Part shown: in pieces, positions 16,637 through 42,741 of the stretch
Numbering within the stretch: position 1 is the stretch's first letter
Layout: each line of letters starts with the position of its first letter
Source of the DNA: Candidatus Latescibacterota bacterium
Lineage (GTDB): Bacteria; Latescibacterota; UBA2968
Direction of reading: 5' to 3'
Assembly: GCA_965222605.1 (NCBI GenBank)
Contig: OZ244960.1
Location: 224,001-288,000 of the forward strand
DNA: 64,000 nt
Notes under the pieces: model-generated
Database searches by the model: none
What the model saw: the letters and a program-made list of their open reading frames with translations, nothing else
Told to the model about the DNA's origin: nothing
Program-made: the position numbers and the translations under genes

Positions 16637-19600
16637 ATGAATAACACACGGTTCAATCAGAATAGTCGCGTACCGGCACTGATGATCGCAGTGATGTTTA
16701 TTGCTGGGACAATGATAATTGGCTGTGCTGAGCAAATAAATGTTGATCAATTTGCCTTTGAGGGCGGCATTGCGATAACCGATACCAGTAAAGTATCGCG
16801 CCATACGCTTCCACTGAAAATGCGCGATGGGCGCAGGTGGTGGCACGGCAGCGACGGGCTTTATTTACAAGATGGGGATGCGTGGCAAAAGTTCACATTG
16901 CCAGAGGGTGGTTCATTGGTGAGCATCAGTGCCTTTCTACAGGCTCGCAATGGCTCGGTATGGTTTGCCAGCTTGTATAAGGAACGCCCGGTTATCGCGA
17001 ACTTTATTGGCAAAACATGGCGGATATGGGACAACAAAACGGGTTTGGGAGAACACGGTATTGGATCAAAATTTGCCGAAGATACAGATGGCGGTATATG
17101 GATTCGCACGAGCCATAAAGATATTACAGCACGCGGTGGCTTTGATCGCGTTCAGGGCGGAAACGGAGTTTTGCACTTTGATGGTGAAACATGGCACAAC
17201 TATACCGTGGAAGATGGATTGATTCACAATCGGGTTTACGATGTAGAAGCCGATCCCAAAGGCGGGATGTGGATCGCAACCCTTCGCGGATTGAGCCATT
17301 ACAAAGATGGAAAATGGACATCTTACCTCGTCGATAATATTCCCGTTGAGGAGATACGCAGTGCTCATGTGTACGAGGGTCGCAAGATCTATGAGCTATT
17401 TTATGATCGAAAAGGCACACTTTGGGCTGTACATGGATCGCATCGCGGACGCACCATAACGCGGTGCAGAGGAGGGATTTCCAGCTTTGACGGCACAACA
17501 TGGACATACCAGGATGCTCATGCAGGATTGCCCATTCGCGCTTCTCGAAATATCTGGCAAACAGAAAACGGCGATTTGTGGTTTGGCACGCACTCAGATG
17601 ACCACAAAGTGGTAGAAGCCAGGGGATTGGTGCGTTATAAAGATGGAATGTGGCTGCGATTGACGCGCAGACACGGCATTCCCGGCGATTATGTGCGGAG
17701 TCTGATAGAAAAAGGAGATGGCTCTTTTTATTTAGATATGTACGGTATCGCGTCATACAGGCCACCTGTTGATAGCCTGACAACGATTTCGGGTAAGGTC
17801 ATTGATCAGCGCAACGCCCAGTCTGCAGCAAATATGGGAATATGGGTTGAATACGACGATGGCGAGGTGCATGCGGGGACCGTGACGGATGAAAATGGTT
17901 ACTATCGCGTTGAAGTCACCCCCGGATCGTATCGCGTGCGGATTGCGTCCAAAAATGCGGCGGATCCTGTGACTGTTGACGCCGGATCTGAGCGCGAAAT
18001 CGACAATATTGATCTCCTTTTGCTCAACTCGCGCCGCATCTCTGGCCGCGTACTCGACACATCGGATAATCCGATTGCCAATGCTGTCGTAGTGATTTCA
18101 GATGCTTCTTCAGGAGACCGACAATTATCTCCCCAGGTCGTCACCACAGATGCCAATGGGAAATTTGAAGGCTGGCAGGTCGCGGGACCACGGGCGACTT
18201 TTGAGGTCGCAGCAGCAGGATATGCACAAACCGCGCTAACAGTTGAAAATACAGCCAAAGACCAGATAGCGATTGCCCTGAAAGAAGGAATAACCCTGCA
18301 CGGTCGCGTTGTCGATGAATCCGACCAACCCGTCGCAGGGGCGCGCGTTGCCCAGGGGCGGTCCCCGATTCCTGGTGCGCAAGCCTCCGCATATACAAAT
18401 CCACCTCCCCTACCCTTTCACCACAATACCTATACCGATGCGTCGGGTTTATTTACTTTTGAGAATATAGATGTGTTCAAAGGTCATATCTGGGTAACCC
18501 ATCCCGAGATCGGAATCATGAGCCAAAAAATTGTACCTGCCGATAATACAATAAAACTCAAAATTGACGACGCGGGTCATGCGGTGATGGATATAGATAT
18601 CCCGGTGAGGCGTCTGCGTGTTTATTCTGTTTCAGGCGTGGTATCGCGAAATGAAGGTTCCGTAGAAGGCTTGAAAATCAGGGCCCTTTCATTTGAAAGA
18701 TCAAGTGGCCCTATTCATCCCAAAACGGCCCATACAGATGCTAACGGGGCATATCGTTTGAATGATCTGGAGCCAGGGGAATATTACATTTCCATGAGTG
18801 TACCCGAAGAAACGGAAATAGACGGGAACACGATGACAGTACATCGTCCTGTTCAATCTCGAATGCTGGTAATTGAAGACCGCGATGTAACGTTGAACTT
18901 TATACCCCTGGGTGACGCGCGAATTACAGGTATTGCGACTCACAACGGACAGCCTATTTCAGAAGTTTATGTAAGCACCCGTATTTTAGCAGATGATCCT
19001 GAGAATTTTGTCTCACTAAGTGGGGTTGACACAGACAAAGAGGGACGATTTGAATTGCGCGATATGCCTTCTGGACGGATTGCCATTTCTCTTCACAAAA
19101 TGGACCATCCCGGTTCTGGTGGAAAACAATGGAGCAAAGTCGATACTATCGATCTGACGGATACAAAAGAATTGAGTTACATGGCGTCATTGGATATGGA
19201 GGAACGCCCGCCTTTGAGCGTGGGAGATATCGCCCCTGAATTTGAGGCCAAACAGTTAGATGGTTCAACATTCCGACTCGCAGATTACCGCGGGGAAAAA
19301 GCCGTTTTGATTGATTTTTGGGCAACGTGGTGTGGCCCGTGTATTGATGAAATTCCGATGATCAAAAGAATTGCCGAAACGTATCGAGACCAGGGCTTGG
19401 AAGTTGTGGGTGTGAGTTTGGATCGGGATGAGCAGGCACTGCGAGATTTTGTTAAACAAGAAAATCTGAGTTATGTACAGGTATTTGAAAAAGAAAAAAC
19501 GCAGACGATTTCAAAATCCTATGGTGTATGGGGAATCCCATCGGTATTTCTGGTAGATAAAAACGGCGTCATCAACGCGCTGAATCTACGCGGAGAACGC

Positions 19601-19639
19601 ACAGAAGCGGCTGTGAAGAAGTTATTAGATACCAACTGA
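16637..19639 (+). CDS. Lipoprotein: regulator-type beta-propeller + carboxypeptidase-regulatory-like Ig domains + TlpA thioredoxin domain
   Basis: AGGAGA RBS; IIG-C lipobox; YTVEDGL/FDG.TW repeats; ISGRVLD..P..NA, TDANG.Y repeats; DFWATWCGPC. Confidence 0.85.
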   Translation: MNNTRFNQNSRVPALMIAVMFIAGTMIIGCAEQINVDQFAFEGGIAITDTSKVSRHTLPLKMRDGRRWWHGSDGLYLQDGDAWQKFTLPEGGSLVSISAFLQARNGSVWFASLYKERPVIANFIGKTWRIWDNKTGLGEHGIGSKFAEDTDGGIWIRTSHKDITARGGFDRVQGGNGVLHFDGETWHNYTVEDGLIHNRVYDVEADPKGGMWIATLRGLSHYKDGKWTSYLVDNIPVEEIRSAHVYEGRKIYELFYDRKGTLWAVHGSHRGRTITRCRGGISSFDGTTWTYQDAHAGLPIRASRNIWQTENGDLWFGTHSDDHKVVEARGLVRYKDGMWLRLTRRHGIPGDYVRSLIEKGDGSFYLDMYGIASYRPPVDSLTTISGKVIDQRNAQSAANMGIWVEYDDGEVHAGTVTDENGYYRVEVTPGSYRVRIASKNAADPVTVDAGSEREIDNIDLLLLNSRRISGRVLDTSDNPIANAVVVISDASSGDRQLSPQVVTTDANGKFEGWQVAGPRATFEVAAAGYAQTALTVENTAKDQIAIALKEGITLHGRVVDESDQPVAGARVAQGRSPIPGAQASAYTNPPPLPFHHNTYTDASGLFTFENIDVFKGHIWVTHPEIGIMSQKIVPADNTIKLKIDDAGHAVMDIDIPVRRLRVYSVSGVVSRNEGSVEGLKIRALSFERSSGPIHPKTAHTDANGAYRLNDLEPGEYYISMSVPEETEIDGNTMTVHRPVQSRMLVIEDRDVTLNFIPLGDARITGIATHNGQPISEVYVSTRILADDPENFVSLSGVDTDKEGRFELRDMPSGRIAISLHKMDHPGSGGKQWSKVDTIDLTDTKELSYMASLDMEERPPLSVGDIAPEFEAKQLDGSTFRLADYRGEKAVLIDFWATWCGPCIDEIPMIKRIAETYRDQGLEVVGVSLDRDEQALRDFVKQENLSYVQVFEKEKTQTISKSYGVWGIPSVFLVDKNGVINALNLRGERTEAAVKKLLDTN

Positions 19640-19675: not shown

Positions 19676-19706
19676 AACCGCCCGGCAATAACGGGCGGTT
19701 TTTTTT
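19676..19706 (+). terminator. Intrinsic terminator
   Basis: AACCGCCCG-N7-CGGGCGGTT + T-run. Confidence 0.85.
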
Positions 19707-19868: not shown

Positions 19869-19951
19869 TACTAATTATTTCGCATTTTAGACTTGACAGT
19901 GGGTTTTTAATCGGCTATTTTCTTGAAAATTTATGTGCTAATTATTTCGCA
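19869..19951 (+). promoter_or_regulatory. Promoter copy 1 with two putative BlaI operators
   Basis: TACTAATTATTTCGCA (19869), TTGACA (19893)-N17-TATTTT, TGCTAATTATTTCGCA (19936). Confidence 0.75.
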
Positions 19952-20002: not shown

Positions 20003-22399
20003 ATGCGATTTAAAACTCATATCGGATTGATCGCGTTAGCTTGCTTTTTGGGTACTGGCTCGTCCAAAGGCGAAACAACCATAGACTCGCTGTTTCAAGC
20101 GGCAGTAGAGCACGGCAAGGTGAGCCGTGCGGAAAGCATTGTGGCTTTCGAGGAGATTATTTCCAAAGATAGAAATTATGCGCCTGTATACAACGAATTG
20201 GCCAAACTGCATCTGTTGGACTACAGCGTAAATGGCCGACAGCGCGCAATGCGGAGGATCCAGCAGGCAATCGAAATTGATCCCGCCAATATTGAGTATC
20301 GGCTGACACGCGGGAAGATTTTGTGGCATCAAGGCTTTCGGTCACGCGCATTGAACCAATTCAAAGACGTGATCGAAAAGCATCCGCAAAATACGGATGT
20401 TCTCAATGGTCTGGGTATGTTCTGGGTGTATGATTTCTTGGCACAGAAAGATAGAAGAACTATACATTATTCAAGAATCACAGGAGCGAGAAAATCCATA
20501 GATTTCAAGATATTTGCCCAGGAACCCAAACAAGAAGCAATTCAGGTCTTGCGAAAAAGTATCCAATTGGATGGGACCAATCAGCAACCCTATTATTTGT
20601 TGGGCATCCTTTACTTTGAAGATAAATACTGGGATGCGTTCCATGCCCTGATGCAAGCCCTGCGCGCGCAATATCCAGATGACAAAAATGCACTGTTGTT
20701 CTGTGGACTTGCCGCCTATCAGATTGGCGAGTTCAATGAATCGCATGAATACTATCAACGCGCTCTTGACTTGATGAGTGTGGAAGAGCGCGAGTTGCTC
20801 GAATCTATCGACCTGCTCGTGCCTCAAGAAGATCATGCATCCCGCGATACGACGCAGACGATTGATGAGCTATTGGAACGCGAGATGTTTTGGAAGAGTC
20901 AGGACCCGCTCTATTTATCTGATTTTAACGAAAGAAAGATGGCACACTTTGGTCGAATGGCTTATGCAAATTTGCGGTTCAGGCGATTTTCAGATAATGT
21001 CGAAGGCTGGCAGACGGATATGGGGAAGACCTATATCAAATTTGGAAGATATAGAGGTCGATTGACAATCTATAAAGCGGCCTGGGATTCTAAAGAGGTC
21101 TTGAATGCTGCAATGATGGAGCTCTGGTATTACGAAAACTTTTATTTCAAATTTTGTGGCACCACGGATGATATCTGGCATTTTTGCGGCGGAACTGTGG
21201 TCGGCGGCGCAAGTCTGGTCCCTAAAGTAGAAACCAGTGCCTTTAATATCAACCCCAACGCTGGTTTGCCACGAAGAGCACCGTCTTCTTATGTACCACC
21301 TGCATTGGAAGAGGCCTCGCATCATACCTTCCGAAAAACAGCCCAACGCTTTGTTGACCCGTATTTAGAGAGAAAATACACCCTCCCCTATCAGATCGCT
21401 GCCTTTGAAGAACAAAACAGGATGCGGATCGAACTCAGCTATATGATTCCCAAAGACCGATTAACAGAAAATCCTGAAACGGGTAAAGTGAGTTTTTGGG
21501 ACGGCGTCTTCTTCTATGATCAGCAGTGGAATGATATGTATAACCATCGCAAATCCAAGACCCTCTCTTTGCTGCAGCCGAAGCCGGCACAAAACGCCGC
21601 TGCACAACATCGCAACGATCACCTGTTGATCTCGCGCACGGTATCTGTACGCCAGGACAGCTATCATTTTTCAGTAGAATTGTTGGATCAAACATCTGGT
21701 CTAATTGGTGTGGCACGCGACGAGAAACCCTTCGTGTATGATCAGGAGACCTTCCATCTGAGTGATCTGTTGGTCGGCAGCGATATTCAAGCGCGCAATG
21801 CATTGATAGAAAACCGTGCCGATCTGCACATCATCCCCAATCCAGTTCGCACATTTGCACCATCTGAACCAGTGTTTATCTATCTGGAACTATATGATCT
21901 CCAACGCGACGACTTTGGCAGCACGCGGTATGAGATTTCCTACACCATCGGCAAGCCAGAGGTGGATACCCTGTCTCCGACCTTGTTCGCATCTCAAAGT
22001 CTGATTGAGACCATGGGTAAAACAGAGATTGATCTGCGGAGAGGACAAACAGATTATATAGCCGCTCAGGGGTTGCAGACAGATCGATCAGAGGATAGCG
22101 AGGAGGACATTAGCGCATTTGTCGATAGCCTTATGTTGGGTGAGACGATGGTTTATACGAGTGGTGGTCAAGTCCATCACATCCCTGCTGAGGGCTTGGA
22201 GATCAAGCGGTCACGACATGGCGATTTGACCCGCACAGTGACAGCCGATTACGAAGGCAATCGAGAAAATGATTTTACGTATTTGCAGATTGATGTGAAT
22301 CAGGTACCTGAAGGGATTTATCAACTGACGGTATTGGCGAAGGACAAGCGGACTGAGCAGACGGATAGGAAATACGTTTATTTCCGAATTGTAGAGTAA
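20003..22399 (+). CDS. GWxTD domain protein, copy 1 (signal peptide, TPRs, GWxTD, Ig-like C-terminus)
   Basis: FWKSQDP...NER..HFGR.AYAN..F...GWQTDMGKTYIKFG; TPR-like repeats; GIYQLTV. Confidence 0.85.
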   Translation: MRFKTHIGLIALACFLGTGSSKGETTIDSLFQAAVEHGKVSRAESIVAFEEIISKDRNYAPVYNELAKLHLLDYSVNGRQRAMRRIQQAIEIDPANIEYRLTRGKILWHQGFRSRALNQFKDVIEKHPQNTDVLNGLGMFWVYDFLAQKDRRTIHYSRITGARKSIDFKIFAQEPKQEAIQVLRKSIQLDGTNQQPYYLLGILYFEDKYWDAFHALMQALRAQYPDDKNALLFCGLAAYQIGEFNESHEYYQRALDLMSVEERELLESIDLLVPQEDHASRDTTQTIDELLEREMFWKSQDPLYLSDFNERKMAHFGRMAYANLRFRRFSDNVEGWQTDMGKTYIKFGRYRGRLTIYKAAWDSKEVLNAAMMELWYYENFYFKFCGTTDDIWHFCGGTVVGGASLVPKVETSAFNINPNAGLPRRAPSSYVPPALEEASHHTFRKTAQRFVDPYLERKYTLPYQIAAFEEQNRMRIELSYMIPKDRLTENPETGKVSFWDGVFFYDQQWNDMYNHRKSKTLSLLQPKPAQNAAAQHRNDHLLISRTVSVRQDSYHFSVELLDQTSGLIGVARDEKPFVYDQETFHLSDLLVGSDIQARNALIENRADLHIIPNPVRTFAPSEPVFIYLELYDLQRDDFGSTRYEISYTIGKPEVDTLSPTLFASQSLIETMGKTEIDLRRGQTDYIAAQGLQTDRSEDSEEDISAFVDSLMLGETMVYTSGGQVHHIPAEGLEIKRSRHGDLTRTVTADYEGNRENDFTYLQIDVNQVPEGIYQLTVLAKDKRTEQTDRKYVYFRIVE

Positions 22400-22409: not shown

Positions 22410-24863
22410 ATGCGATTTACAACTCATATCGGATTGATCGCGTTGGTTTGTCTTTTGGGTTCTGGCTTGACCAGAGGCGAAACCACAATAGACACGCTGT
22501 TTCAGAATGCAATGGAGCAAGTCGGTCAGGTGAGTCGAAAGGAAAGCATCAAAGCTTTCGAGGAGATTATTTCCAAAGATAGAGATTATGCACCTACATA
22601 TAATGAATTGGCCAAACTGCATCTGTTGGACCACAGCGTAAATGGGCGACAGCACGCAATGCAGATGATCCGGCAGGCAATCGCGCTTGACCCTGCCAAT
22701 GTTGAGTATCGGTTGACACGCGGAAAGATTTTGTGGCATCAAGACTTTCGGTCACGCGCCTTGAACCAATTCAAAGACATGACCAAAAAGCATCCGCAAA
22801 ATACGGTTGTCCTCAATAGTATAGGTATGTTCTTGGTGTATGATTTCCTATCACAGAAAGATAGAAGAGCGCCATTGAAAGAGATGGACATGGGGTCCAG
22901 GGTACCACATTACAAGACAATGGCAATGAAGCCCAGGATAAAAGATTTCAAGACCTTTGCCCAGGAATCCAAACAAGAAGCAATCCAGGTCCTGCGAAAA
23001 AGCATCCAATTGGATGCCACTAATCAGCAATCCTATTATTTGCTGGGCATCCTCTACTTTGAAGATGAGAACTGGAATGCGTTTCATGCCTTGATGCAAG
23101 ACTTGTACGCGCACAACCCAGATGACAAAAATGCGCTCTTGTTCTGTGGGCTTGCCGCCTATCAAATTGGCGAATTCAATGACTCACATGAATACTATCA
23201 ACGCGCCCTTGACTTGATGAGTGTTGAAGAACGTGAGTTGCTCGAATCAATTGACCTGCTCGTGTCCGAAGAAGATCATGCATCCCGCGATACGACGCAG
23301 GCAATTGATGAATTATTAGAACGCGAGATGTTTTGGAAGCGCCAGGACCCGCTCTATTTGTCTGATTTTAATGAAAGAAAGATGGCACATTTTGGTCGCA
23401 TGGCTTATGCAAATTTGCGGTTCAGGCGATTTTTGGATGATGTTGAGGGGTGGCAGACAGATATGGGGAAGACCTACATCAAATTTGGAAGATATAGACG
23501 TCGCGTGACAACCTATAAAGGGACATGGGATTCTGAAAAGGTCCTGGATGCCGCAATGATGGAGTTCTGGTATTACGAAAACTTTCAGTTCAAATTTTGT
23601 GGCACTACGGATGATATCTGGCATTTTTGCGGCGGTGCTGTAGGCTACCTCCCAAGCACGGTGCCTGCAGTAGAAACCAGTGGTTTTACGATCACGAAGA
23701 GAGCAGAGGATGATGTTAAGAGGATACGACCGTATTTTATGATGAGAATATCACCGGCTTCCTTTGTTCCACCTATATCTATATTAACAGAAGCCCCGCA
23801 TCATATCTTCCGAAAAATAGCCCAACGCTTTGTCGATCCTTACCTCAATCGAAAATACACTCTTCCCCATCAGATCGCCGCCTTTGAAGAACGAGACAGC
23901 ATGCGGGTCGAACTCAGCTATATGATTCCCAAAGACCGATTAACAGAAAATTCCGAAACGGGCAAGGTGAGTTTTTGGGATGGGGTGTTCTTCTTTGATC
24001 AGCAGTGGAATGAGGTGTATAAATATCGCAAATCCGTGAGCTTTGCATTGCCGCCGCAGAAGCCAGCCTCCAATGCTGCTGCACGACATCGCAACGATCA
24101 CCTGTTGATCTCCCGCACATTGTCTGTACCTCAAGGCAGCTATCATGTTTCTGTAGAATTATTGGATCAGACATCCGGCGCAATTGGTATTGCACGCAAT
24201 GAGGAACAATTTTTGTATGACCAGGAGCCCTTTCATCTGAGCGATCTGCTCGTCGGCAACGATATTCAAACGAAGAAAGCATTGCCAGAAAGCCGCGACG
24301 ACCTGCACATCACACCCAATCCTGTTCGCACATTTTCACAGTCTGAACCGGTCTTTATCTATCTGGAACTGTATGATCTCCAACGCGACGATTTTGGCAG
24401 TACGCAGTATGAGATCTCCTACACCATTGGCAAGCCAGAGGTAGATACGCTATCGCCCACATTGTTCGCGTCTCAAAACGTGATTGACACCTTGGGTACC
24501 ACGACAATTGATCTGCGGGTTGAACAAGCAGAATCCAGTCTCGCAGAAGGCTTGGTGACAGAGGGGTCACAAGATGGTCTGTTTGGTGATAGTGATATAT
24601 GGGGCGAGACGAAGGTTTATACGAGTGGTGGTCAAGTCCATCACATCGCCGCCGAAGGCTTGAAGATCAACCGATCAAAAGATGGCGATTTGACCCGTAC
24701 AGTAACAGCCAACTACGAAGGCAATCGAGAAAATGATTTCACGTATTTGCAGATTGATGTGAATCAGGTGCCTGAAGGGATTTATCAATTAACTGTATTG
24801 GCAAAAGACAAGCAGACTGATCAGACGGATAGGAAATACGTTTATTTTCGGGTTGTAAAGTGA
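22410..24863 (+). CDS. GWxTD domain protein, copy 2
   Basis: Same architecture and motifs as copy 1. Confidence 0.85.
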   Translation: MRFTTHIGLIALVCLLGSGLTRGETTIDTLFQNAMEQVGQVSRKESIKAFEEIISKDRDYAPTYNELAKLHLLDHSVNGRQHAMQMIRQAIALDPANVEYRLTRGKILWHQDFRSRALNQFKDMTKKHPQNTVVLNSIGMFLVYDFLSQKDRRAPLKEMDMGSRVPHYKTMAMKPRIKDFKTFAQESKQEAIQVLRKSIQLDATNQQSYYLLGILYFEDENWNAFHALMQDLYAHNPDDKNALLFCGLAAYQIGEFNDSHEYYQRALDLMSVEERELLESIDLLVSEEDHASRDTTQAIDELLEREMFWKRQDPLYLSDFNERKMAHFGRMAYANLRFRRFLDDVEGWQTDMGKTYIKFGRYRRRVTTYKGTWDSEKVLDAAMMEFWYYENFQFKFCGTTDDIWHFCGGAVGYLPSTVPAVETSGFTITKRAEDDVKRIRPYFMMRISPASFVPPISILTEAPHHIFRKIAQRFVDPYLNRKYTLPHQIAAFEERDSMRVELSYMIPKDRLTENSETGKVSFWDGVFFFDQQWNEVYKYRKSVSFALPPQKPASNAAARHRNDHLLISRTLSVPQGSYHVSVELLDQTSGAIGIARNEEQFLYDQEPFHLSDLLVGNDIQTKKALPESRDDLHITPNPVRTFSQSEPVFIYLELYDLQRDDFGSTQYEISYTIGKPEVDTLSPTLFASQNVIDTLGTTTIDLRVEQAESSLAEGLVTEGSQDGLFGDSDIWGETKVYTSGGQVHHIAAEGLKINRSKDGDLTRTVTANYEGNRENDFTYLQIDVNQVPEGIYQLTVLAKDKQTDQTDRKYVYFRVVK

Positions 24864-24906: not shown

Positions 24907-24934
24907 ACCGCCCAGCAGCAACGGGCGGTTTTTT
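24907..24934 (+). terminator. Intrinsic terminator
   Basis: ACCGCCC-N9-GGGCGGT + T-run. Confidence 0.75.
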
Positions 24935-24975
24935 ATTTTTGAGTCAACTGCAATCTTCTGTGCATTTAAAAACAC

Positions 24976-25058
24976 TGCTAATTTTTTCGCTATTTGGGCT
25001 TGACAACGAATTTTTAATCGGCTATGTTTCTGAAAATTGGTATGCTAATTATTTCGCA
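24976..25058 (+). promoter_or_regulatory. Promoter copy 2 with two putative BlaI operators
   Basis: TGCTAATTTTTTCGCT (24976), TTGACA (25000)-N17-TATGTT, TGCTAATTATTTCGCA (25043). Confidence 0.8.
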
Positions 25059-25079: not shown

Positions 25080-25259
25080 CTGATGTTACGCATAGGCACA
25101 ATATAATGCGCCTGTCATTCTGAGCGGAGCGCAGCGGAGTCGAAGAATCTATATACTTCAGAGGTAAAAGATGCTTCGTCAGCCTATCGGGTGTTGGGCG
25201 CAGGAGATTCATTGCGCCCGCCTCAGCATGACAGAAACGCGAGACATGCGTAACATCAG
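25080..25259. mobile_element. 180-bp MITE-like element in the blaI leader
   Basis: 14-bp TIR CTGATGTTACGCAT/ATGCGTAACATCAG; TTAATAA direct repeat at 25073 and 25260; the paralogous leader at ~32535 is the empty site. Confidence 0.88.
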
Positions 25260-25279: not shown

Positions 25280-25663
25280 ATGGCAAGGCCACGACAAGAG
25301 GGTTTGACTGCCCGAGAGATAGAACTCATACAGGTACTCTGGCAACAGAAACAGGCAACCGTCGAGATGATCCAGGCAAAATTGCCCGACCGATTAGAAG
25401 GATCAACCATTCGCACACTCTTACAGATTATGGAAGACAAAGGCTATGTGGCACACGAAAAACAAGGACGCGCCAATGTGTACCGCCCCGTGATCGAACA
25501 GCAGAGAGTTCAATCATCGGCAATGAAACACATCATTCAAAAACTATTTGGCGGTTCAACCGAACTCTTGCTGGCGCGACTGGTTGAAGACGAAGAGATA
25601 GATCTGGACGACGTCGCGCGATTGCGTGCAAAACTCAAGCAACGCAAAGGAGGCGCATCATGA
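25280..25663 (+). CDS. BlaI/MecI/CopY-family repressor, copy 1
   Basis: LTAREIELIQVLW...STIRTLLQIMEDKGYV...GRANVYRP...LFGGS. Confidence 0.92.
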   Translation: MARPRQEGLTAREIELIQVLWQQKQATVEMIQAKLPDRLEGSTIRTLLQIMEDKGYVAHEKQGRANVYRPVIEQQRVQSSAMKHIIQKLFGGSTELLLARLVEDEEIDLDDVARLRAKLKQRKGGAS

Positions 25664-32368: not shown

Positions 32369-32397
32369 ACCGCCCAGCAACAACGGGCGGTTTTTTA
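32369..32397 (+). terminator. Intrinsic terminator (duplicate of 24907)
   Basis: ACCGCCC-N9-GGGCGGT + T-run. Confidence 0.75.
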
Positions 32398-32437: not shown

Positions 32438-32520
32438 TGCTAATTTTTTCGCTATTTGGGCTTGACAACGAATTTTTAATAGGATATTTTTCTGAAAACT
32501 GATATGCTAATTTTTTCGCA
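32438..32520 (+). promoter_or_regulatory. Promoter copy 3 with two putative BlaI operators
   Basis: TGCTAATTTTTTCGCT (32438), TTGACA (32462)-N17-TATTTT, TGCTAATTTTTTCGCA (32505). Confidence 0.8.
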
Positions 32521-35900: not shown

Positions 35901-36975
35901 TGATGTGATAGATATCCGCGTAGAACGTTTGCGTTTGTACTCTATTTCAGGTAGGGTATCGCTAACTGGCGTGCCCGTAGAAAGGCTAACGGTCAGAACC
36001 ATTGCCCTTAATGGAGCAGAATCCAGACCCCAAGTAGGCCGCCCTGACGCTAATGGTGCATATCGTCAGGAGGGTCTGGAGCCAGGGAAATATCATATTT
36101 CCGTAACCGTACCCGAAAAAGAGGAAAGGGATGGACGCACAATCGTAATCAATCGCAGAGTTCAATCTCAGGTGCTGGTAATCAAAGACCGCGATGTAAT
36201 ATTGAACTTTGCGCCTCTGGGCGATGCGCGAATTACAGGTGTGGCAACTTACAAGGGACAGCCCGTTTCAGATGTTGCCATAAGCGTCCATACTATAGGC
36301 GATGATCCTGAGAATTTTGTCTCAATAGAAGGCAAAAAAACAAACAAAGAGGGCCGGTTTGAATTACGCGATCTACCTTCTGCACGGATTACCATTTCTT
36401 TTCGTAAAATGGAACGCCTCGGCCCTGGTGGAAAACGCTGGAGCAAAGTCGATAGGATTGATCTGACGAATAAAAAAGAATTGAGTTATATAGCAGAATT
36501 GGAAATGGAGGAACGTCCGACCTTGAGCCTGGGTGATATAGCACCCGAATTTGAAGCCAAACAGTTGGATGGTTCAACATTCCGGCTCTCAGATTACCGG
36601 GGCAAAAAAGCCGTGTTGATCGACTTTTGGGCAACGTGGTGTGGCCCGTGTATCGATGAAATTCCGATGATCAAAAGCATTGCCGAAACATATCGGGATC
36701 AGGGACTGGAAGTTGTGGGCGTGAGTTTGGACCGGGATGAGCAGGCACTACGAGATTTTGTAAAAAAGGAAAAGCTGAGCTATGTGCAGGTATTTGAAAA
36801 AGAAAAAACGCGAGCGATTTCAAAATCCTACGGTGTATGGGGCATCCCATCGGTATTTCTGATAGATAAAAATGGCGTCATCAACGCGATGAAGCTACGC
36901 GGAACTCGCACAGAAGTGGCGGTAAAGGCGTTATTGGCCAATGATCTACAGACGGCTGATGGAAATTCGCGATAA
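32935..36975 (+). CDS. M56 (BlaR1-like) metallopeptidase-propeller-Ig-TlpA fusion, copy 2
   Basis: HELIH, WFNPL, EQACDD, propeller repeats, WCGPC. Confidence 0.9.
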   Translation: MIDTLVNVLEPIAIFLLDATIKTTLFMGLVLLAVWLLDTRQAAKRSLLLSWCLVGVLVIPIASLCMPSLRFQFDAPSPPSESAIPSPQPVVVPDTPLAKSTPALKQQRVSDRAFSENPELSQNFVSPPPAQIVFAKNAGTKSVIWTAYILNEITSVHALYGVIALYAIGVLVLLIRTIYCLIMVCKFRRSLLPCEDEQLQNDLQVLKNQLGIRRSVALAISDQIGSPTQVGLLKPVVVLPTLMVKSRDQLESILIHELIHVKRWDCLYRLLAMVGMAFYWFNPLFHRAKHLLFEVQEQACDDWTITTTGNSESYADTLLNVATQLHPRPAMALGMDMARTTQVMERVNRIITLGGHVTPRVGRVSALVLAVVFIGGATAIGSLTTAKVDQNEKKVVFEGGIAVTDTSDVSQRTLPMKMRDGRLWWRGENGLYLQDGDAWQKFTLPEGGSFDHIHAFMQARNGSMWFAGIYINGPIVVNFSGKTWQIWDSKTTGLGKITAGYDFAEDEDGGIWISHHGMGNIRAHGGSDRFKGGNGVLHFDGKVWRNYTVKDGLIHNRVYNVEADPKGGVWIATLRGLSHYKDGKWTSHIVDSVPVEGVRNGNIYDGHKVYKLLYDREGTLWAVHGSNIGRTITQYKGGISSFDGTAWTHYNAQAGLPINASRNIWQTENGDLWFGTHQGDQTVVEARGLMRYKDGMWLRLTRKHDLPGDSVWGLVEKGDGSFYLGVSGIVSYKPPIDHLSTISGKVIDQRDGHPVANMRIWIEYDDGEVHAGTATDENGHYRVEVTPGSYRVRIASKNAAEPVTVEAKPESKIENIDLLLLNSRRISGRVLDKFDNPIANAVVVISDDTSEDRRLSPQIVTTDANGKFEGWQVSGPKATFEVAAKGYAQIAREVENAIEKQVVISLKKGTMFRGRVVDELGKPIAWARVGPGPPPDPEKKVYVLPALPFQRNTYTDASGLFTLNDVARGHIWVNHPETGIVSQEVMPADDVIDIRVERLRLYSISGRVSLTGVPVERLTVRTIALNGAESRPQVGRPDANGAYRQEGLEPGKYHISVTVPEKEERDGRTIVINRRVQSQVLVIKDRDVILNFAPLGDARITGVATYKGQPVSDVAISVHTIGDDPENFVSIEGKKTNKEGRFELRDLPSARITISFRKMERLGPGGKRWSKVDRIDLTNKKELSYIAELEMEERPTLSLGDIAPEFEAKQLDGSTFRLSDYRGKKAVLIDFWATWCGPCIDEIPMIKSIAETYRDQGLEVVGVSLDRDEQALRDFVKKEKLSYVQVFEKEKTRAISKSYGVWGIPSVFLIDKNGVINAMKLRGTRTEVAVKALLANDLQTADGNSR

Positions 36976-37013: not shown

Positions 37014-39479
37014 ATGCGATTCACAATTCATATCGGATTGATCGCGTTGGCTTGCCTTTGGGGTTCTGGCTCGTCCAAAGGCGAAACCACAATAGACGCG
37101 CTGTTTCAGAATGCAAGGGAGCAAGTTGATCAGGTGAGTCGTGCGGAAAGCATTGTGGCTTTGGAGGAGATTATTTCCAAAGATAGAGATTATGCACCTG
37201 CATACAACGAATTGGCCAAACTACATCTGTTGGACCACACCGTAAATGGCCGACAGCGCGCAATGCAGATGATACAGCAGGCAATCGAAATTGATCCCGA
37301 CAATATTGAGTATCAGCTAACGCGAGGAAAGATTTTGTGGCATCAAGGCTTTCGGTCACGGGCATTGAACCAATTCAAAGACATGACCCAAAAGCATCCT
37401 GAAAATACGGATGTCCTCAATAGTATAGGTATGTTTTGGGTGTATGACTTCCTGTCACAGAAGGATAGAAGAGCACCATTAAGAGAGATGAACATGAGGT
37501 CCCTTATATTCAAAGATTTCAATAAAATGGCAATGCGATCCAGAATAAAAGATTTCAAAATCTTTGCCCAGGAAGCCAAACAAGAAGCAATTCCGATCTT
37601 GCGAAAAAGCATCGAATTGGATGCCACTGATCAGCAATCCTATTATTTGCTGGGCATCCTCTACTTTGAAGATGAGGACTGGTATGCGTTTCAAACCTTG
37701 ATGCAAGACTTGTACGCGCAATATCCAGATGACAAAAATGCACTGTTGTTCTGTGGCCTTGCCGCTTATCAGATTGGCGAATTTAATGAATCGCATGAAT
37801 ACTATCAACGTGCCCTTGACTTGATGCGTGTTGAAGAACGCGAGTTGCTCGAATCTATTGACCTGCTCGTGCCTGAAGAAGGGCATGCATCCCGCGATAC
37901 GACGCAGGCAATTGATGAGTCATTGGAACGCGAGATCTTTTGGAAGCGCCAGGATCCGCTCTATTTGTCTGATTTTAACGAAAGAAAAATGGAGCACTTT
38001 GGTCGCATAGCGTATTCGAATTTGCGGTTCAGGCGATTTTCAGATGATGTTGAGGGCTGGCAGACGGACATGGGGAAGACCTATATCAAATTTGGAAGAT
38101 ATAGACGTCGCATGACAACCTATAAAGGGACATGGGATTCTGAAGAGGTCCAGGGTGCCGCAATGGTGGAGTTCTGGTATTACGAAAATTTCCAGTTCAA
38201 ATTTTGTGGTACTAGGGATGATATCTGGCATTTCTGCGGCGGTGCTGTAGGCTACCTCCCAAGCACGGTGCCTACAGTAAGAATCAGTACCTTTACTTAT
38301 GAGAAGGTAATATCATATGCTGATACTGCGGGAGTACGACCGTATTTTATGCAAAGAAAATCACGGTCTTCTTTTGTCCCACGTACATTGGAAGGGACCT
38401 CTTACACCTTTCGGAAAACAGCCCAACGCTTTATCGATCCGTATTTAAATCGCAAATACACCTTGCCTTATCAGATCGCCGCCTTTGAAGAACGAGACAG
38501 CATGCGAGTCGAACTCAGCTATATGATTCCCAAGGACCGATTAACAGAAAATCCTGAAATGGGCAAAGTGAGTTTTTGGGATGGGGTATTCTTCTTCGAT
38601 CAGCAGTGGAATGAGGTGTATAAATATCGCAAATCCGTGAGCTTTGTATTGCCGCCGCAGAAGCCAGCCTCCAATGCTGCTGCACGGCATCGCAACGATC
38701 ACCTGTTGATCTCCCGCACATTGTCTGTACCTCAAGGCAGCTATCATGTTTCTGTAGAATTATTGGATCAGACATCCGGCGCAATTGGTATTGCACGCAA
38801 TGAGGAACAATTTTTGTATGACCAGGAGCCCTTTCATCTGAGCGATCTGCTCGTCGGCAACGATATTCAAACGAAGAAAGCATTGCCAGAAAGCCGCGAC
38901 GACCTGCACATCACACCCAATCCCGTCCGTACATTTTCACCATCTGAACCGGTCTTTATCTATCTGGAACTATATGATCTCCAGCGCGACGCTTTCGGCA
39001 GCACGCAATATGAGATCTCCTACACCATCGGCAAGCCAGAGGTGGATACGCTATCGCCCACATTATTCGCCTCTCAAGATCTGATTGAGACGATGGGAAA
39101 AACAGAGATTGATCTGAGGAGTGAACAAGCAGACCAAATTGCTGCCGAGAATTTGCAGACCGGGCAATCACAGGATGACGATGTGCTCGATAGCGTATTT
39201 CCCGATAGCGATATATGGGGCGAGACGAGGGTTTATACGAGTGGTGGTCAAGTCCATCACATCGCCGCCGAGGGCTTGAAGATCAAGCGATCAAAAGATG
39301 GTGATTTGACCCGCACTGTCACAGCGAATTACGAAGGCAATCGAGAAGATGATTTTACATACTTGCAGATTGATGTGAACCAGGTACCCGAGGGGGTTTA
39401 TCAATTGACCGTATTGGCAAAAGACAAGCGGACGGAGCAGACGGATAGGAAATATGTCTATTTCCGTATCATAGAATAA
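37014..39479 (+). CDS. GWxTD domain protein, copy 4
   Basis: Same architecture; GWQTDMG. Confidence 0.85.
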   Translation: MRFTIHIGLIALACLWGSGSSKGETTIDALFQNAREQVDQVSRAESIVALEEIISKDRDYAPAYNELAKLHLLDHTVNGRQRAMQMIQQAIEIDPDNIEYQLTRGKILWHQGFRSRALNQFKDMTQKHPENTDVLNSIGMFWVYDFLSQKDRRAPLREMNMRSLIFKDFNKMAMRSRIKDFKIFAQEAKQEAIPILRKSIELDATDQQSYYLLGILYFEDEDWYAFQTLMQDLYAQYPDDKNALLFCGLAAYQIGEFNESHEYYQRALDLMRVEERELLESIDLLVPEEGHASRDTTQAIDESLEREIFWKRQDPLYLSDFNERKMEHFGRIAYSNLRFRRFSDDVEGWQTDMGKTYIKFGRYRRRMTTYKGTWDSEEVQGAAMVEFWYYENFQFKFCGTRDDIWHFCGGAVGYLPSTVPTVRISTFTYEKVISYADTAGVRPYFMQRKSRSSFVPRTLEGTSYTFRKTAQRFIDPYLNRKYTLPYQIAAFEERDSMRVELSYMIPKDRLTENPEMGKVSFWDGVFFFDQQWNEVYKYRKSVSFVLPPQKPASNAAARHRNDHLLISRTLSVPQGSYHVSVELLDQTSGAIGIARNEEQFLYDQEPFHLSDLLVGNDIQTKKALPESRDDLHITPNPVRTFSPSEPVFIYLELYDLQRDAFGSTQYEISYTIGKPEVDTLSPTLFASQDLIETMGKTEIDLRSEQADQIAAENLQTGQSQDDDVLDSVFPDSDIWGETRVYTSGGQVHHIAAEGLKIKRSKDGDLTRTVTANYEGNREDDFTYLQIDVNQVPEGVYQLTVLAKDKRTEQTDRKYVYFRIIE

Positions 39480-39563
39480 ATATTGGATACCAATGCATGG
39501 TTAGCTATATTTTTTAAAGAGAATATAAACCTTGACTATCACACTCCAAAAAGAGGATACAAA

Positions 39564-39848
39564 ATGGAACCTCTTATTATTCAAATTGGTCGTCAACGGG
39601 ATGGTTGCACTTACCAACTACACCCATCTTCTCGTGTCCAACTTAAAAAAGCGTTCCCGAATGTACGCTCGGTCCCCAGTGTTTTTATAGGTTACGATAC
39701 GCAATCAGACTTTGAGGTATTGCACGGCCCTCTGTGGAAGCAAGTCGCTATAATGCTAACGGGACTGTCATGGAAACGAATTGAAGACTTAGGTGGCATT
39801 AAAATTTACGATCCTGTACAAGAAATAGCAGTTGAACAGGTCTTGTAG
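39564..39848 (+). CDS. Small hypothetical protein (94 aa)
   Basis: GAGGA RBS before ATG 39564; next gene starts 1 nt after the stop. Confidence 0.6.
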   Translation: MEPLIIQIGRQRDGCTYQLHPSSRVQLKKAFPNVRSVPSVFIGYDTQSDFEVLHGPLWKQVAIMLTGLSWKRIEDLGGIKIYDPVQEIAVEQVL

Positions 39849-39849
39849 C

Positions 39850-40323
39850 ATGTCGCGACGCAATCTCTACATCGGCAAGAGCGGACAGATGGCTGTCATG
39901 GCCGAATATCTTGCCCGCGGATACAATGTGGCCATTCCCGAAGTGGATATTGGTGACGACATCTTTGTCGTACGCGATGAAATTGGTGAATTCTCTCGAA
40001 TCCAGGTTAAATCCGCCACAGCCAGAAATAGAACGGGCGGATTTACCGCCCAGTTTAGTGTGCTGTTCAGACAACTGCAAACACCATTGATTCCTGACCT
40101 TTACTATGTGTTCACTACGCGCCGCAAAGAACGATGGGAAGAATTTTTGATCTTTGGACGACGCGAACTCTACGACTGCCACATCAACAACAACGTGGGC
40201 ACGCGCACCAGGCAGAACGTCATATTTCGTTTTTCTTTTTTTAATTCTGATGTGATCTGTCAGAAGCAGAGCTTTCAGGCGTACAGAAACAATTGGTCGA
40301 ACTGGCCGACAGTTGAGCACTGA
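39850..40323 (+). CDS. PD-(D/E)XK superfamily nuclease-like protein
   Basis: G..G...V.AEYLARGYNVAIPEVDIGDD...RIQVKS. Confidence 0.7.
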   Translation: MSRRNLYIGKSGQMAVMAEYLARGYNVAIPEVDIGDDIFVVRDEIGEFSRIQVKSATARNRTGGFTAQFSVLFRQLQTPLIPDLYYVFTTRRKERWEEFLIFGRRELYDCHINNNVGTRTRQNVIFRFSFFNSDVICQKQSFQAYRNNWSNWPTVEH

Positions 40324-40368: not shown

Positions 40369-42741
40369 ATGAGGAAGCGATTCATAATTCGCCTGGGGCT
40401 GGTCGTGTTGATCAGCTTTTTTGGTCCTGGCTCGCCCAAAGGGGAAACAACAATAGACGCGCTGTTTCAGGCGGCAGAGCAGCAAGTCGGCAAGGTGAGT
40501 CGGAAGGAAAGCATCAAGGCGTTCGAGGAGATTGTTTCTAAAGATAGAGATTATGCCCCTGCATACAACGAATTGGCCAAACTGCATCTATTGGACCACA
40601 GCGTAAATGGCCGACAGCGCGCAATGCGGATGATACAGCAGGCAATCGCAATTGATCCCGACAATATTGAGTATCGGCTGACACGCGGAAAGATTTTGTG
40701 GCATCAAGGCTTTCGGTCACGGGCATTCCACCAATTCAAAGACGCGATCGAAAAGCATCCGGAAAATACAGATATCCTCAATGGGCTGGGTATGTTCTGG
40801 GTGTATGAGTTTCTAAGAATAAAAGATAATTCCCAAACCCGGGATTTTAGGGGATTTGCCCGGGAAGCGAAACAAGAAGCAATTCAGGTCTTGCGAAAAA
40901 GTATCCAATTAGATGGGACCAATCAGCAACCCTATTATTTGCTGGGCATATTTTACTTTGAAGATAAATACTGGGATGCTTTTCATGCCTTGATGCAAGC
41001 CCTGCACGCGCAATATCCAGATGACAAAAATGCGCTGTTATTCTGTGGCCTTGCCGCCTATCAGATTGGCGAATTCAATGACTCGCATGACTATTATCAA
41101 CGCGCTCTTGACTTGATGAGTGTAGAAGAGCGCGAGTTACTGGACTCTATCGACCTGCTTATGCCAGAAAAAGATCATGCATCCCACGATACAACGCAGA
41201 CAATTGATGAATTATTAGAGCGCGAGATGTTTTGGAAGAGCCAGGACCCGCTCTATTTGTCTGATTTTAACGAAAGGAAAATGGAACACTTTGGTCGTAT
41301 GGCATACTCGAATTTGCGGTTCAGGCGATTTTCTGATAATGTCGAGGGTTGGCAGACAGATATGGGAAAGGCTTATATCAAATTCGGAAGATATAGAAGT
41401 AGAAAAACCTTTTATCTTTCAAAAGGTGGATCAGAGTTTCGTGCGTTTTACGAGATGCGGGAGACATGGTTTTACGAAACATTTAAGATCGAATATTGTG
41501 GGAATGGCGGTGATCGGTGGGGGTTCTGTGGTGGTTACGGGGTTGGCGGTGTCAGTTTTATTCCCCCAAATAATAGTCTCTTTGACTACTGGCGCGAAGC
41601 ACCTGATAATGCTTTTAGACGGCGAACATTTTCTTTTCCCAGTACACTTCAAGAAGCCTCGCATCATATATTCAGAAAAACAGCACAGCGTTTTATTGAT
41701 CCCTATCTCAATAGAAAATACACCCTCCCCCATCAAATCGCCGTCTTTGAAGAACGAGACAGCGTACGCGTCGAACTCAGTTATATGATTCCGAAAGACC
41801 GATTAGAAGCAGATACCGAGACTGGCGAAGTGAGTTTTTGGGATGGCGTATTCTTATTTGATGAGCATTGGGATGATGTATATAACTATCGCAAATCTAT
41901 GAGCTTCGCGCTTCCGCCTCCCCTGCCAGCCCAAAACGCCGCTGCACGGCATCGCAACGATCACTTGCTGGTCTCACGCATGTTATCCGTCCCTCAAGGC
42001 AGCTATCATTTTTCAATAGAATTGTTGGATCAAACATCCGGCGCGATTGGCATAGCACGCAATGAGGAGCAGTATGTCTATCACAATGAGATCTTTCATC
42101 TGAGTGATCTATTGGTCGGTAGCGATATTCAAGCGCGCAATGCGTTGCCAGAGAGCCGTAACGACCTGATCATCACGCCCAATCCTGTCCGCACATTTTC
42201 ACGGTCTGAACCGGTCTTTATCTATCTGGAACTGTACGACCTCAAACGCGACGATTTTGGCAGCACACAGTATGAGATCTCCTACACCATCGGCAAGCCA
42301 GAGGTAGATACCCTATCGCCCACATTGTTCGTGTCTCAAAACCTGATTGAAATGATGGGTAAAACAGAAATTGACCTGCGTAGTGGACAAGGATATTACA
42401 TCGCTTCCGAGGGTTTGCAGACAGGGCGACCACAGGAGAGTGATGAGATCGGTAGCATATTTGCCGACAGCGATATATGGGGAGATACAAAGGTTTATAC
42501 GAGCGGTGGGCAGGTTCATCATATCGCAGCAGAAGGCTTGAAGATCAAGCGATCAAAAGATGGCGATTTGGCGCGCACCGTGACAGCCAATTACGAAGGC
42601 AATCGAGAAAATGATTTCACGTATTTGCAGATTGACGTGAACCAGGTGCCATCGGGGATCTATCAATTAACGGTATTGGCAAAGGACAAGCGGACAGAGC
42701 AGACGGATAGGAAATATGTCTATTTTCGCATTATTGAGTAA
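40369..42741 (+). CDS. GWxTD domain protein, copy 5 (most divergent)
   Basis: Same architecture; GWQTDMGKAYIKFG. Confidence 0.85.
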   Translation: MRKRFIIRLGLVVLISFFGPGSPKGETTIDALFQAAEQQVGKVSRKESIKAFEEIVSKDRDYAPAYNELAKLHLLDHSVNGRQRAMRMIQQAIAIDPDNIEYRLTRGKILWHQGFRSRAFHQFKDAIEKHPENTDILNGLGMFWVYEFLRIKDNSQTRDFRGFAREAKQEAIQVLRKSIQLDGTNQQPYYLLGIFYFEDKYWDAFHALMQALHAQYPDDKNALLFCGLAAYQIGEFNDSHDYYQRALDLMSVEERELLDSIDLLMPEKDHASHDTTQTIDELLEREMFWKSQDPLYLSDFNERKMEHFGRMAYSNLRFRRFSDNVEGWQTDMGKAYIKFGRYRSRKTFYLSKGGSEFRAFYEMRETWFYETFKIEYCGNGGDRWGFCGGYGVGGVSFIPPNNSLFDYWREAPDNAFRRRTFSFPSTLQEASHHIFRKTAQRFIDPYLNRKYTLPHQIAVFEERDSVRVELSYMIPKDRLEADTETGEVSFWDGVFLFDEHWDDVYNYRKSMSFALPPPLPAQNAAARHRNDHLLVSRMLSVPQGSYHFSIELLDQTSGAIGIARNEEQYVYHNEIFHLSDLLVGSDIQARNALPESRNDLIITPNPVRTFSRSEPVFIYLELYDLKRDDFGSTQYEISYTIGKPEVDTLSPTLFVSQNLIEMMGKTEIDLRSGQGYYIASEGLQTGRPQESDEIGSIFADSDIWGDTKVYTSGGQVHHIAAEGLKIKRSKDGDLARTVTANYEGNRENDFTYLQIDVNQVPSGIYQLTVLAKDKRTEQTDRKYVYFRIIE

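Follow-up and report, generated by a model that had tools for sequence, protein, structure and literature searches.

The DNA considered here, which we call the window, is a stretch of 64,000 nucleotides from a Candidatus Latescibacterota genome (assembly GCA_965222605.1, contig OZ244960.1, positions 224,001 to 288,000). Between positions 16637 and 42741 its + strand harbors an array of twelve open reading frames (ORFs), all of them intact. The array contains two genes for BlaI-family repressors, two for sensors that unite an M56 peptidase domain, a propeller, immunoglobulin (Ig)-like domains and a TlpA-like thioredoxin domain (M56-propeller-Ig-TlpA), one for a protease-less paralogue of these sensors and five for proteins that join tetratricopeptide repeats (TPR) to a GWxTD domain. 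A preliminary description of the window had proposed that a unit of ~7.2-7.5 kb, ordered blaI > sensor > GWxTD, occurs twice in tandem and is accompanied by three extra GWxTD genes and the protease-less sensor, with every ORF intact. Our domain calls, made by Pfam and NCBIfam profile searches of the window ORFs, and the repeat-unit spacing of 7450 and 7157 nt bear out this layout. Throughout the text we number the sensors S0 to S2, the repressors I1 and I2, the GWxTD proteins G1 to G5 and the promoter-operator cassettes P1 to P3 in order along the strand; the three extra GWxTD genes are G1, G2 and G5, and the protease-less sensor is S0.

S0 (16637-19639, with a longer ORF from 16586; called by Pfam, NCBIfam and alignment) opens the array and is followed by an intrinsic terminator at 19676-19700, in which a terminator scan finds nine pairs, seven of them GC, and a T-run. 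Behind P1 lie two genes for exported TPR-GWxTD proteins, G1 (20003-22399, 798 aa) and G2 (22410-24863, 817 aa), the latter starting 10 nt past the former. The first full unit consists of P2, I1 (25280-25663, 127 aa), S1 (25660-29817, 1385 aa) and G3 (29860-32325, 821 aa), with a 180-bp insertion resembling a miniature inverted-repeat transposable element (MITE) in the leader of its blaI gene (25080-25259, no strand assigned); the second consists of P3, I2 (32555-32938, 127 aa), S2 (32935-36975, 1346 aa) and G4 (37014-39479, 821 aa). Two small ORFs of 121 and 163 aa (39483-40323), whose membership in the system is doubtful, lie between G4 and G5 (40369-42741, 790 aa), the most divergent of the GWxTD paralogues. 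The G proteins are 71-83% identical among themselves, S1 and S2 are 75% identical, and S0 is 63-69% identical to S1 and S2.

Hairpin terminators follow S0, G2 (24907-24935) and G3 (32369-32397), and none follows G4. The three share one motif, with ACCGCCC...GGGCGGT in the hairpins of S0 and G2; the terminator-like hairpins of G2 and G3, each with a T-run, have 9-nt loops that lie outside the limit of the scan and were read from the sequence. Within the units, the blaI stop codon overlaps the sensor start (ATGA), and the spacers between sensor and GWxTD gene measure 42 nt (S1-G3) and 38 nt (S2-G4), contain a ribosome-binding site and hold no terminator. Such short, terminator-free spacers support the predicted co-transcription of G3 and G4 with the blaI and sensor genes ahead of them.

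Repressors, sensors and a shared promoter-operator cassette

I1 and I2 match Penicillinase_R (PF03965) at 103.4 and 102.7 bits (cut-off 22.6; E 1e-29) and match MecI/BlaI structures at E 1e-10 to 1e-6, MecI (1sd6) at E 1.3e-10. The two repressors are identical at 120 of 127 residues (94.5%), including R100-L101, which aligns with what we take to be the N-F cleavage position of MecI. A longer ORF for I2, from 32504, is an over-call, the alignment of twelve blaI leaders placing the start at 32555.

S1 and S2 match Peptidase_M56 (PF05569) at 122 and 120 bits (cut-off 31), and both retain an intact HExxH motif, present as HELIH at 247-251 in S1 and at 256 in S2. Hydrophobic segments of S1 at ~12-44, 43-73, 145-181 and 352-378 suggest a topology of about four membrane segments, as expected for a BlaR1-like membrane protease. 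The array organism is Gram-negative and the sensor part, of ~1000 aa, therefore lies in the periplasm, unlike that of the S. aureus proteins. It consists of a membrane-proximal propeller of Reg_prop repeats, a stalk of four to five Ig-like CarboxypepD_reg domains and, at the far end, a TlpA-like domain, placed after the last membrane segment. The latter scores 91-95 bits with AhpC-TSA and 81-84 bits with Redoxin, both above cut-off, and carries CGPC at 1281-1284 in S1 and at 1236 in S2 (WCGPC in S0, S1 and S2). The equivalog-level NCBIfam models stay below their cut-offs, at 104-107 bits for ResA (cut-off 170), 64-68 bits for TlpA (cut-off 230) and 54-57 bits for DsbE (cut-off 123). Neither PF00905 nor any beta-lactamase family is among the 20 Pfam matches per sensor, and the NCBIfam blaR1_generic model reaches 81-85 bits, far below its cut-off of 400. 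Because of these two results the S1/S2 system is, judged by its domain content, a member of the BlaIR family and not a beta-lactam sensor, and the earlier proposal that the penicillin-binding domain is replaced by propeller, Ig-like and thioredoxin-like domains is supported by the domain searches.

Identity between the two units falls and rises again along their length: 97% in the regulatory DNA, 88-95% in blaI and the M56 domain, 73-87% in the propeller, 45-79% in the Ig stalk, where there are also indels, and 81-88% in the thioredoxin tip. As the tip is the best conserved part of the ectodomain and the stalk the most variable, the stalk behaves like a spacer and the tip like a conserved working part. 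Furthermore, HExxH and WCxPC are invariant in an alignment of ten sequences that includes M56-Ig-thioredoxin proteins only 21-24% identical overall. S0 keeps a Reg_prop propeller, four CarboxypepD_reg domains and a TlpA-like Redoxin/AhpC-TSA domain and lacks M56; its N-terminus aligns with the last membrane segment (TM4) of S1 and S2 and contains, on reading by eye, a candidate lipobox (IIGC). No operator cassette lies upstream of it. S0 thus looks like a sensor that has lost its protease half and has been kept as an anchored ectodomain.

The feature that ties the array together is a cassette of 80 bp, in which two GCTAATWWTTTCGC boxes 67 nt apart flank a promoter of the form TTGACA-17-TATTTT/TATGTT. 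Each box is an imperfect dyad, GC(T/G)AA-N4-TT(C/A)GC; one lies just upstream of the -35 element and the other just downstream of the -10 element. With at most one mismatch the box occurs six times in the window against 0.16 expected, a count reached in none of 100 shuffles, and the six boxes form three pairs around -35/-10 elements; the promoter and operators claimed in the preliminary description are real. P1 (19870-19950; boxes 19870-19883 and 19937-19950, -35 at 19893, -10 ending at 19921), which the preliminary description had passed over, stands past the S0 terminator and 53 nt ahead of G1-G2, P2 (24977-25057; boxes 24977-24990 and 25044-25057, -35 at 25000, -10 ending at 25028) before the first blaI gene and P3 (32439-32519; boxes 32439-32452 and 32506-32519, -35 at 32462, -10 ending at 32490) before the second. 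The leaders of I1 and I2 are 97% identical, and the operator dyads are conserved in 11 of the 12 blaI leaders compared, the exception being an orphan blaI at 2.10 Mb. With one cassette directly ahead of G1-G2, and with G3 and G4 close behind the sensors, the GWxTD genes do stand where the output of the switch had been placed.

The whole genome (6.34 Mb) contains 20 single boxes with at most one mismatch, but only five pairs at a spacing of 66-67 nt, and all five lie inside one conserved module of ~110 bp upstream of a gene start. Three of the operons so marked are in the array: G1-G2, blaI-1/S1/G3 and blaI-2/S2/G4 (perhaps with G5). The fourth, at 704.9 kb on the minus strand, encodes a MacB_PCD/FtsX permease (808 aa), a leucine-rich repeat (LRR)-dockerin protein (822 aa), a dockerin-redoxin (230 aa, WCGPC) and a GWxTD protein of 1039 aa; the fifth, at 3390.7 kb on the plus strand, encodes a dockerin-redoxin (239 aa, WCPPC) and an LRR protein (824 aa). 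The products of these two distant operons all start with signal-like sequences, and a TlpA-like domain is common to four of the five cassette operons. Since the same cassette precedes five operons, the array appears to be the core of a five-operon regulon of exported proteins, BlaI control being suggested by the position, dyad symmetry and conservation of the boxes.

We favor, at a probability of about 60%, the reading that the array is the core of a regulated-proteolysis switch of the BlaI/BlaR family, in a form confined to one genus, with S1 and S2 as parallel inputs and release of five operons as the outcome. If the switch works like BlaR1/MecR1, all five promoters would be repressed by BlaI dimers bound to the two dyads; a signal at the ectodomain would activate the M56 domain, which would then cleave BlaI and so release a burst of exported proteins. 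The near-identity of the BlaI proteins and of the operators implies that S1 and S2 feed one regulon rather than separate circuits; either sensor should deplete the common BlaI pool, making the two alternative inputs.

GWxTD proteins and the distribution of the locus

All five G proteins of the window match TIGR04514 at 49-52 bits (cut-off 28) and carry the motif EGWQTD, and three of the five reach ~16 bits with Pfam PF20094 (cut-off 26.9). In the AlphaFold model of G3 (predicted local distance difference test, pLDDT, 83.1; predicted template modeling score, pTM, 0.82) an N-terminal signal peptide is followed by a TPR solenoid (27-280), an alpha/beta GWxTD core (287-411), a disordered loop (421-459) and two beta-sandwiches, the second of which is broken by a disordered stretch (696-754). 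A fold search with the full-length model returned TPR proteins only. The model of residues 280-821 (pLDDT 81.6) returned only generic Ig/FnIII-like sandwiches, which barely cover the GWxTD core; its best VIA match is RbmA (Z 8.7, root-mean-square deviation 9.8), in a range that the tool calls common. A PDB sequence search with the core gave nothing better than E 1.9, and no open paper naming GWxTD, TIGR04514, PF20094 or IPR030959 was found. The GWxTD family is abundant, with 4539 cluster representatives at E <= 0.001. That a subset of it stands behind a recognizable repressor-operator cassette gives a first regulatory handle on, and a context for, part of the family, one open to experiment through a reporter, a defined regulon and a protease switch.

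The genome as a whole has 44 TIGR04514 matches, four M56 genes and five firm BlaI genes, and most of its GWxTD genes are solitary or sit in modules without a link to blaI or M56. A recurrent module (e.g., locus L033, 924-8845; locus L036, ~6639-8054) combines a CarboxypepD_reg/Plug receptor of 1017-1147 aa (family c1, with 11 members near GWxTD genes), an unknown protein of 705-850 aa without a Pfam match (c0), a PorV-like barrel of 312-360 aa (c2), a GWxTD protein and a DUF6785/DUF6784 membrane protein of 648-728 aa (c3). An unknown protein of 232-251 aa also recurs beside receptors. The GWxTD proteins of these modules belong to the same family as those of the array and share their build of TPR, GWxTD core and beta-sandwich; those of the window differ in forming part of a separate clade that lies beside blaI and M56 and not beside receptors, none of the five having a receptor or PorV-like neighbor within three genes.

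The modules suggest another way to read the sensors, in which the propeller, or else the stalk of Ig domains, is the binding site for a glycan or protein whose presence reports on outer-membrane transport or on nutrient status, the TlpA domain serves only as a tethered enzyme, and the GWxTD outputs are accessory factors of TonB-dependent receptor/PorV-like modules, so that the regulon tunes uptake or surface display. The recurrence of GWxTD genes beside such receptors, barrels and DUF6785 proteins speaks for it, as do the Reg_prop repeats with a partial, below-cut-off PorZ-like match in the ectodomain, and S0, which shows that the ectodomain has a function of its own. It is nonetheless unlikely: the window GWxTD genes lack receptor and PorV-like neighbors, the element common to four of the five operons is a TlpA-like domain and not a transporter, and even M56-Ig-thioredoxin proteins that are very distant and have no propeller keep the CxxC without exception.

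The clade to which the five window proteins belong comprises seven of the 44 and is marked by a Cys pair (FKFCG...FCGG) just before the variable loop. Its sixth member (833 aa) adjoins the orphan blaI, which is 87% identical to I1 and begins ~55 nt past that GWxTD gene (G000:C1:2101214-2104132, minus strand; locus L035, 5214-8132). The orphan lacks a cassette, a promoter of its own and a sensor. The arrangement resembles a G-to-blaI junction that has been translocated from the array, and it could supply a non-autoregulated repressor.

Among 40 relatives, full-length relatives of S1 occur only in the same genus, the one exception being a protein of 38-40% identity encoded in G036, which belongs to a different family. 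We fetched 40 kb around ten S1 relatives. Seven genomes (G019, G007, G004, G014, G020, G015 and G017) carry the locus at the same chromosomal site, with a family-B polymerase-like gene on one side and galK, then galT-galE, greA and rpoA, on the other. Each of these seven loci has one blaI, zero to two full sensors and one to three GWxTD genes in the order blaI > sensor > GWxTD, and the copy number of the unit within the genus is one to three per genome. The cassette is present in 16 of 41 genomes, all of them among the 21 of the genus (0 of the 20 outside), and a reversed-pattern control gave none; the genome of the window has five cassettes, other carriers one or two. Of the five genus genomes without the cassette, G001, G008 and G018 have no sensor, and G010 has a sensor with a degenerate M56 domain and no blaI. 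The fifth is G016, whose sensor is 63% identical and where a divergent pair has a perfect-palindrome variant of the box (GCTAA-N4-TTAGC); the promoter in G036 is likewise flanked by related dyads. We fetched five second-site cassettes, of which four drive a dockerin-TlpA and an LRR gene, two of these together with an orthologue of the 1039-aa GWxTD protein; that orthologue is broken in G017.

In a large protein collection, too, the M56-propeller-Ig-thioredoxin architecture scarcely occurs outside this clade. Public records label the close homologues Gemmatimonadetes, Gemmatimonadota or Latescibacteria, and the rest are a few distant M56-Ig-thioredoxin proteins (P0195, P0202, P0205 and P0207) and one Planctomycetota locus. 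The preliminary description had pointed to blaI-M56-GWxTD synteny and M56-GWxTD fusions as the patterns to look for. The synteny holds in all seven same-site loci of the genus and was not found outside it, none of 11 blaI-M56 loci (from 80 loci of other phyla) having a GWxTD core within 10 kb. None of nine M56 genes in five Acidobacteria genomes shares a contig with a GWxTD gene, and fusions were not found either, none of 120 listed homologues of an acidobacterial GWxTD protein carrying PF05569; these fusion and adjacency samples are small and were not aimed at the one Atlas cluster that carries M56. That cluster, reached from P0108, is an acidobacterial GWxTD cluster of 54 members, 11% of them with Peptidase_M56, a lead that could not be confirmed; if it is true, GWxTD itself can be the sensor domain of a BlaR-like protein.

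The adjacency data bear on a feedback or co-sensor arrangement as well, in which the induced GWxTD protein would bind the CarboxypepD_reg stalk of the sensor, in the way that it may engage the corresponding extension of TonB-dependent receptors, and tune the system or switch it off, the sensor thereby measuring free GWxTD. GWxTD genes do adjoin genes for CarboxypepD_reg proteins in two genomic contexts, receptors and sensors, and the Atlas lead would fit. We consider such feedback very unlikely in view of the counts of 0 of 9, 0 of 11 and 0 of 120 for fusion or adjacency and of the lack of co-divergence between sensors and GWxTD proteins described below.

Divergence of the copies

The copies are 45-97% identical along their length at the DNA level. 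An assembly artefact, which had been named as grounds for refuting the proposal, is unlikely, because the array lies on a single contig of 6.34 Mb, its copies differ by 10-55% at the DNA level, and in seven other genomes of the genus the locus occupies this site in differing copy number. The duplication is recent, and we infer that the stretch between the family-B polymerase-like gene and galK is a hot spot where duplication and recombination give rise to the tandem copies. Degenerate pieces in relatives (G019 has a 149-aa stub of M56, G017 has the sensor in broken pieces, and G004, G014 and G007 retain 182-323 aa of S0), together with the MITE-like element in the leader of blaI-1, might be taken as signs of an artefact or of decaying, functionless duplicates. 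That explanation is extremely unlikely: the copies are diverged and not collapsed, all ten main ORFs are open with low ratios of nonsynonymous to synonymous substitution rates (dN/dS), and three further runs, drawn from three studies, yield Logan contigs that span 25-30 of 30 bins of the stretch, in short pieces only, the uncovered parts in X5 and X22 carrying no meaning.

The dN/dS values are 0.08 for blaI, 0.18-0.30 for the domains of S1/S2, 0.04-0.33 for the folded domains of the G proteins and 0.18-0.38 for S0 against S1, and such low values indicate that all copies are kept by purifying selection. Diversifying selection at the level of domains was not seen, all folded domains lying between 0.04 and 0.38; the loop 421-460 of the G proteins, predicted to be disordered, has a dN/dS of 0.5-1.1 over 29-39 codons. 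Nor do sensors and GWxTD proteins co-diverge across ten adjacent pairs from seven genomes (Spearman -0.10, Mantel p ~0.70), and S1-type sensors that are 82-87% identical precede G proteins that are just 68-70% identical.

These results speak to the function originally proposed, a repertoire of diversified, cognate sensor-GWxTD pairs for the recognition of host, kin or phage, with each unit a separate channel. The variation from one to three units among members of the genus, the indels of the Ig stalk, the two predicted disordered and fast-changing loops of the G proteins (421-460 among them), the LRR and TPR repeat proteins in the regulon and related contigs in a coral metatranscriptome are all compatible with it. 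However, near-identical BlaI proteins and five cassettes with the same boxes mean that the units are not insulated and cannot report separately; adjacent sensors and GWxTD proteins do not co-diverge, the folded domains are under purifying selection, and in the sensor the stalk varies most and the tip least. The claim is further undercut by a regulon that reaches beyond the array to genes for TlpA-like redoxins, LRR proteins and a MacB-like permease, by a GWxTD family of 44 members that is mostly unlinked to blaI/M56 and by the failure to find the synteny outside the genus. A repertoire of this kind is thus quite improbable, and the parallel-input switch remains the reading that we prefer.

Candidate signals, known counterparts and neighboring genes

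For the signal of the proposed switch, we consider at somewhat less than even odds that the distal thioredoxin domain reads the thiol-redox state of the periplasm or traps an oxidized or disulfide-bearing client, which would parallel BlaR1, whose sensor is kin to a beta-lactamase but turns over slowly. A redox signal is favored because the TlpA-like domain recurs in four of the five operons, is the best-conserved part of the ectodomain and does not vary in distant relatives. On this reading the regulon would serve as an envelope stress response, in which TlpA redoxins repair thiols and the TPR-GWxTD and LRR proteins serve as binding or assembly factors at the outer membrane. A more specific version, which is doubtful, makes S1 and S2 the first thiol-trapping sensors of the BlaR type: the tip, at the outer end of an Ig stalk that spans the periplasm, would form a long-lived oxidized or mixed-disulfide state with damaged envelope clients, a covalent event comparable to the acylation of BlaR1 by a beta-lactam, and would thereby switch on M56, and the trapped clients may be the Cys-pair GWxTD proteins themselves. 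If this is true, Gemmatimonadota-like bacteria would have a thiol-stress pathway of the envelope that is new, and GWxTD proteins would gain a first role, as stress-induced outer-membrane assembly or binding factors. A complex prediction of G3 (821 aa) with the TlpA domain of S1 (1236-1385) gave a score of 0.00 and a mark of 0.32, run without controls, and speaks neither for nor against an interaction.

Several observations weigh against the switch as we have drawn it. BlaI binding is argued from the three properties of the boxes given above, and the boxes are unlike the TACA/TGTA motif of staphylococcal BlaI. The propeller could bind a ligand and the TlpA domain could be merely a tethered enzyme, a sensing role of the thioredoxin being one that we infer, and S0 shows that the ectodomain works without the protease. 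G5 lacks its own cassette, although nothing that is clearly a terminator separates it from G4, and the sole RNA library with matches (X22) yields contigs ~90% identical, from a relative, with DNA carry-over possible. The distant blaI-sensor pairs of G016 (63% identical) and G036 (40%) lie elsewhere in the genome, and the genes behind them, among them those for carbonic anhydrase, MOSC and methyltransferases, are unrelated and give no hint of an ancestral output. Finally, the seventh Cys-pair GWxTD gene stands alone at 4.00 Mb without a cassette, and three genomes without the canonical locus, G010, G016 and G018, have GWxTD copies at 66-68% identity (in G001 and G008 no copy exceeds 35%). As these Cys-pair genes exist apart from the system, the link between GWxTD and the switch is real but not obligatory.

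The closest characterized counterparts of the preferred switch are BlaI/BlaR1 and MecI/MecR1 of S. aureus. As described in the available parts of a published account, BlaR1/MecR1 cleave BlaI/MecI once the sensor domain is acylated, and the BlaR1 sensor resembles a class D beta-lactamase with slow deacylation (PMC7593790). The array shares with these systems a winged-helix repressor gene ahead of an M56 HExxH protease whose sensor is C-terminal and extracytoplasmic, an autoregulated promoter with two operator dyads, and a sensor domain related to an enzyme class. It differs in having no beta-lactam-binding domain, the sensor part being a propeller, an Ig-like stalk and a thioredoxin fold of ~1000 aa in all; in its operator sequence; and in its output, which is exported GWxTD, TlpA and LRR proteins and not a beta-lactamase or PBP2a.

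Sensors without a beta-lactam domain have precedents. The accessible text of a survey of BlaR-like proteins counts 254 domain architectures, ~6% with a transpeptidase domain and ~96% beside a blaI-like gene, and reports M56 architectures that include CarbopepD_reg_2 and TonB_C (PMC13492132). Non-canonical BlaIR pairs, as far as the available portions of the accounts go, include CenIR of C. difficile (PMC13492132), PetRP of Synechocystis, which responds to copper (PMC7896320), and PvmSR of P. aeruginosa (preprint 10.64898/2026.08.03.742534). In those portions they resemble the array in pairing a BlaI-like protein with an M56 protein that has no beta-lactam domain and in having small regulons that include exported proteins of unknown function; the same portions mention no thioredoxin-type sensor, GWxTD output, tandem array or multi-operon cassette, though the supplementary tables of the CenIR account may list M56-thioredoxin proteins. 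The array is thus a variant within the already published group of BlaR-like proteins with other sensor domains, and its sensor architecture is new. It adds a concrete case to the recent view that beta-lactams are not what most BlaR-like proteins sense, with a redox enzyme fold, kept invariant over great distance, as the sensor. This form is confined to one uncultured genus and has no bearing on antibiotic resistance.

The sensor tip is also comparable with the TlpA/ResA/DsbE oxidoreductases, with which it shares an exported thioredoxin fold, a W-C-x-x-C motif and matches to Redoxin and AhpC-TSA; unlike them, it is fused to the end of a signaling protease, and no link to genes for cytochrome or copper-centre maturation was seen in the window. 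A functional analogy may be drawn with the sigma-E/DegS-RseA and Cpx systems, in which an envelope sensor leads, through proteolytic loss of an inhibitor of transcription, to the production of periplasmic folding and redox factors. The proteins are unrelated, however, and the array would use one-step cleavage of a repressor instead of an anti-sigma cascade; stress as its signal is hypothetical.

The MITE-like element has 14-nt inverted ends, CTGATGTTACGCAT, flanked by a duplicated TTAATAA, and sits between the second operator and the ribosome-binding site of blaI-1. Its predicted folding energy as RNA is -81 kcal/mol (z -5.8). At least ten complete copies are present in the genome, and G014 has a longer copy at the same site. 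Runs X3 and X5 contain element-free contigs, and the depth over the element is 20-100x that of its flanks.

A second BlaI-M56 pair, unrelated to that of the array, lies at G000:C1:707080-712070 (minus strand; locus L039, 13080-18070), 2 kb upstream of the cassette-driven MacB/LRR/TlpA/GWxTD operon. Its sensor, of 902 aa, has five TonB_C domains, and the pair is followed by a gene for a 618-aa protein that ends in a TlpA-like domain, so that M56 and TlpA are neighbors here too.

Within the window, the two small ORFs between G4 and G5 have no paralogue elsewhere in the genome. The second of them (163 aa) weakly matches PD-(D/E)XK, below the cut-off at E 5.8e-5, and is overlapped by a 173-aa ORF on the opposite strand. 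Upstream of the array, at a distance of 6 kb, is a gene for an IS605-type OrfB/TnpB protein (9467-10600) with Cas12f1-like TNB, OrfB_IS605 and HTH_OrfB domains. Beyond the array, beside galK, a single ORF of 722 aa on the minus strand (44320-46488) fuses a GalE-like NAD-dependent epimerase with galactose-1-phosphate uridylyltransferase domains.

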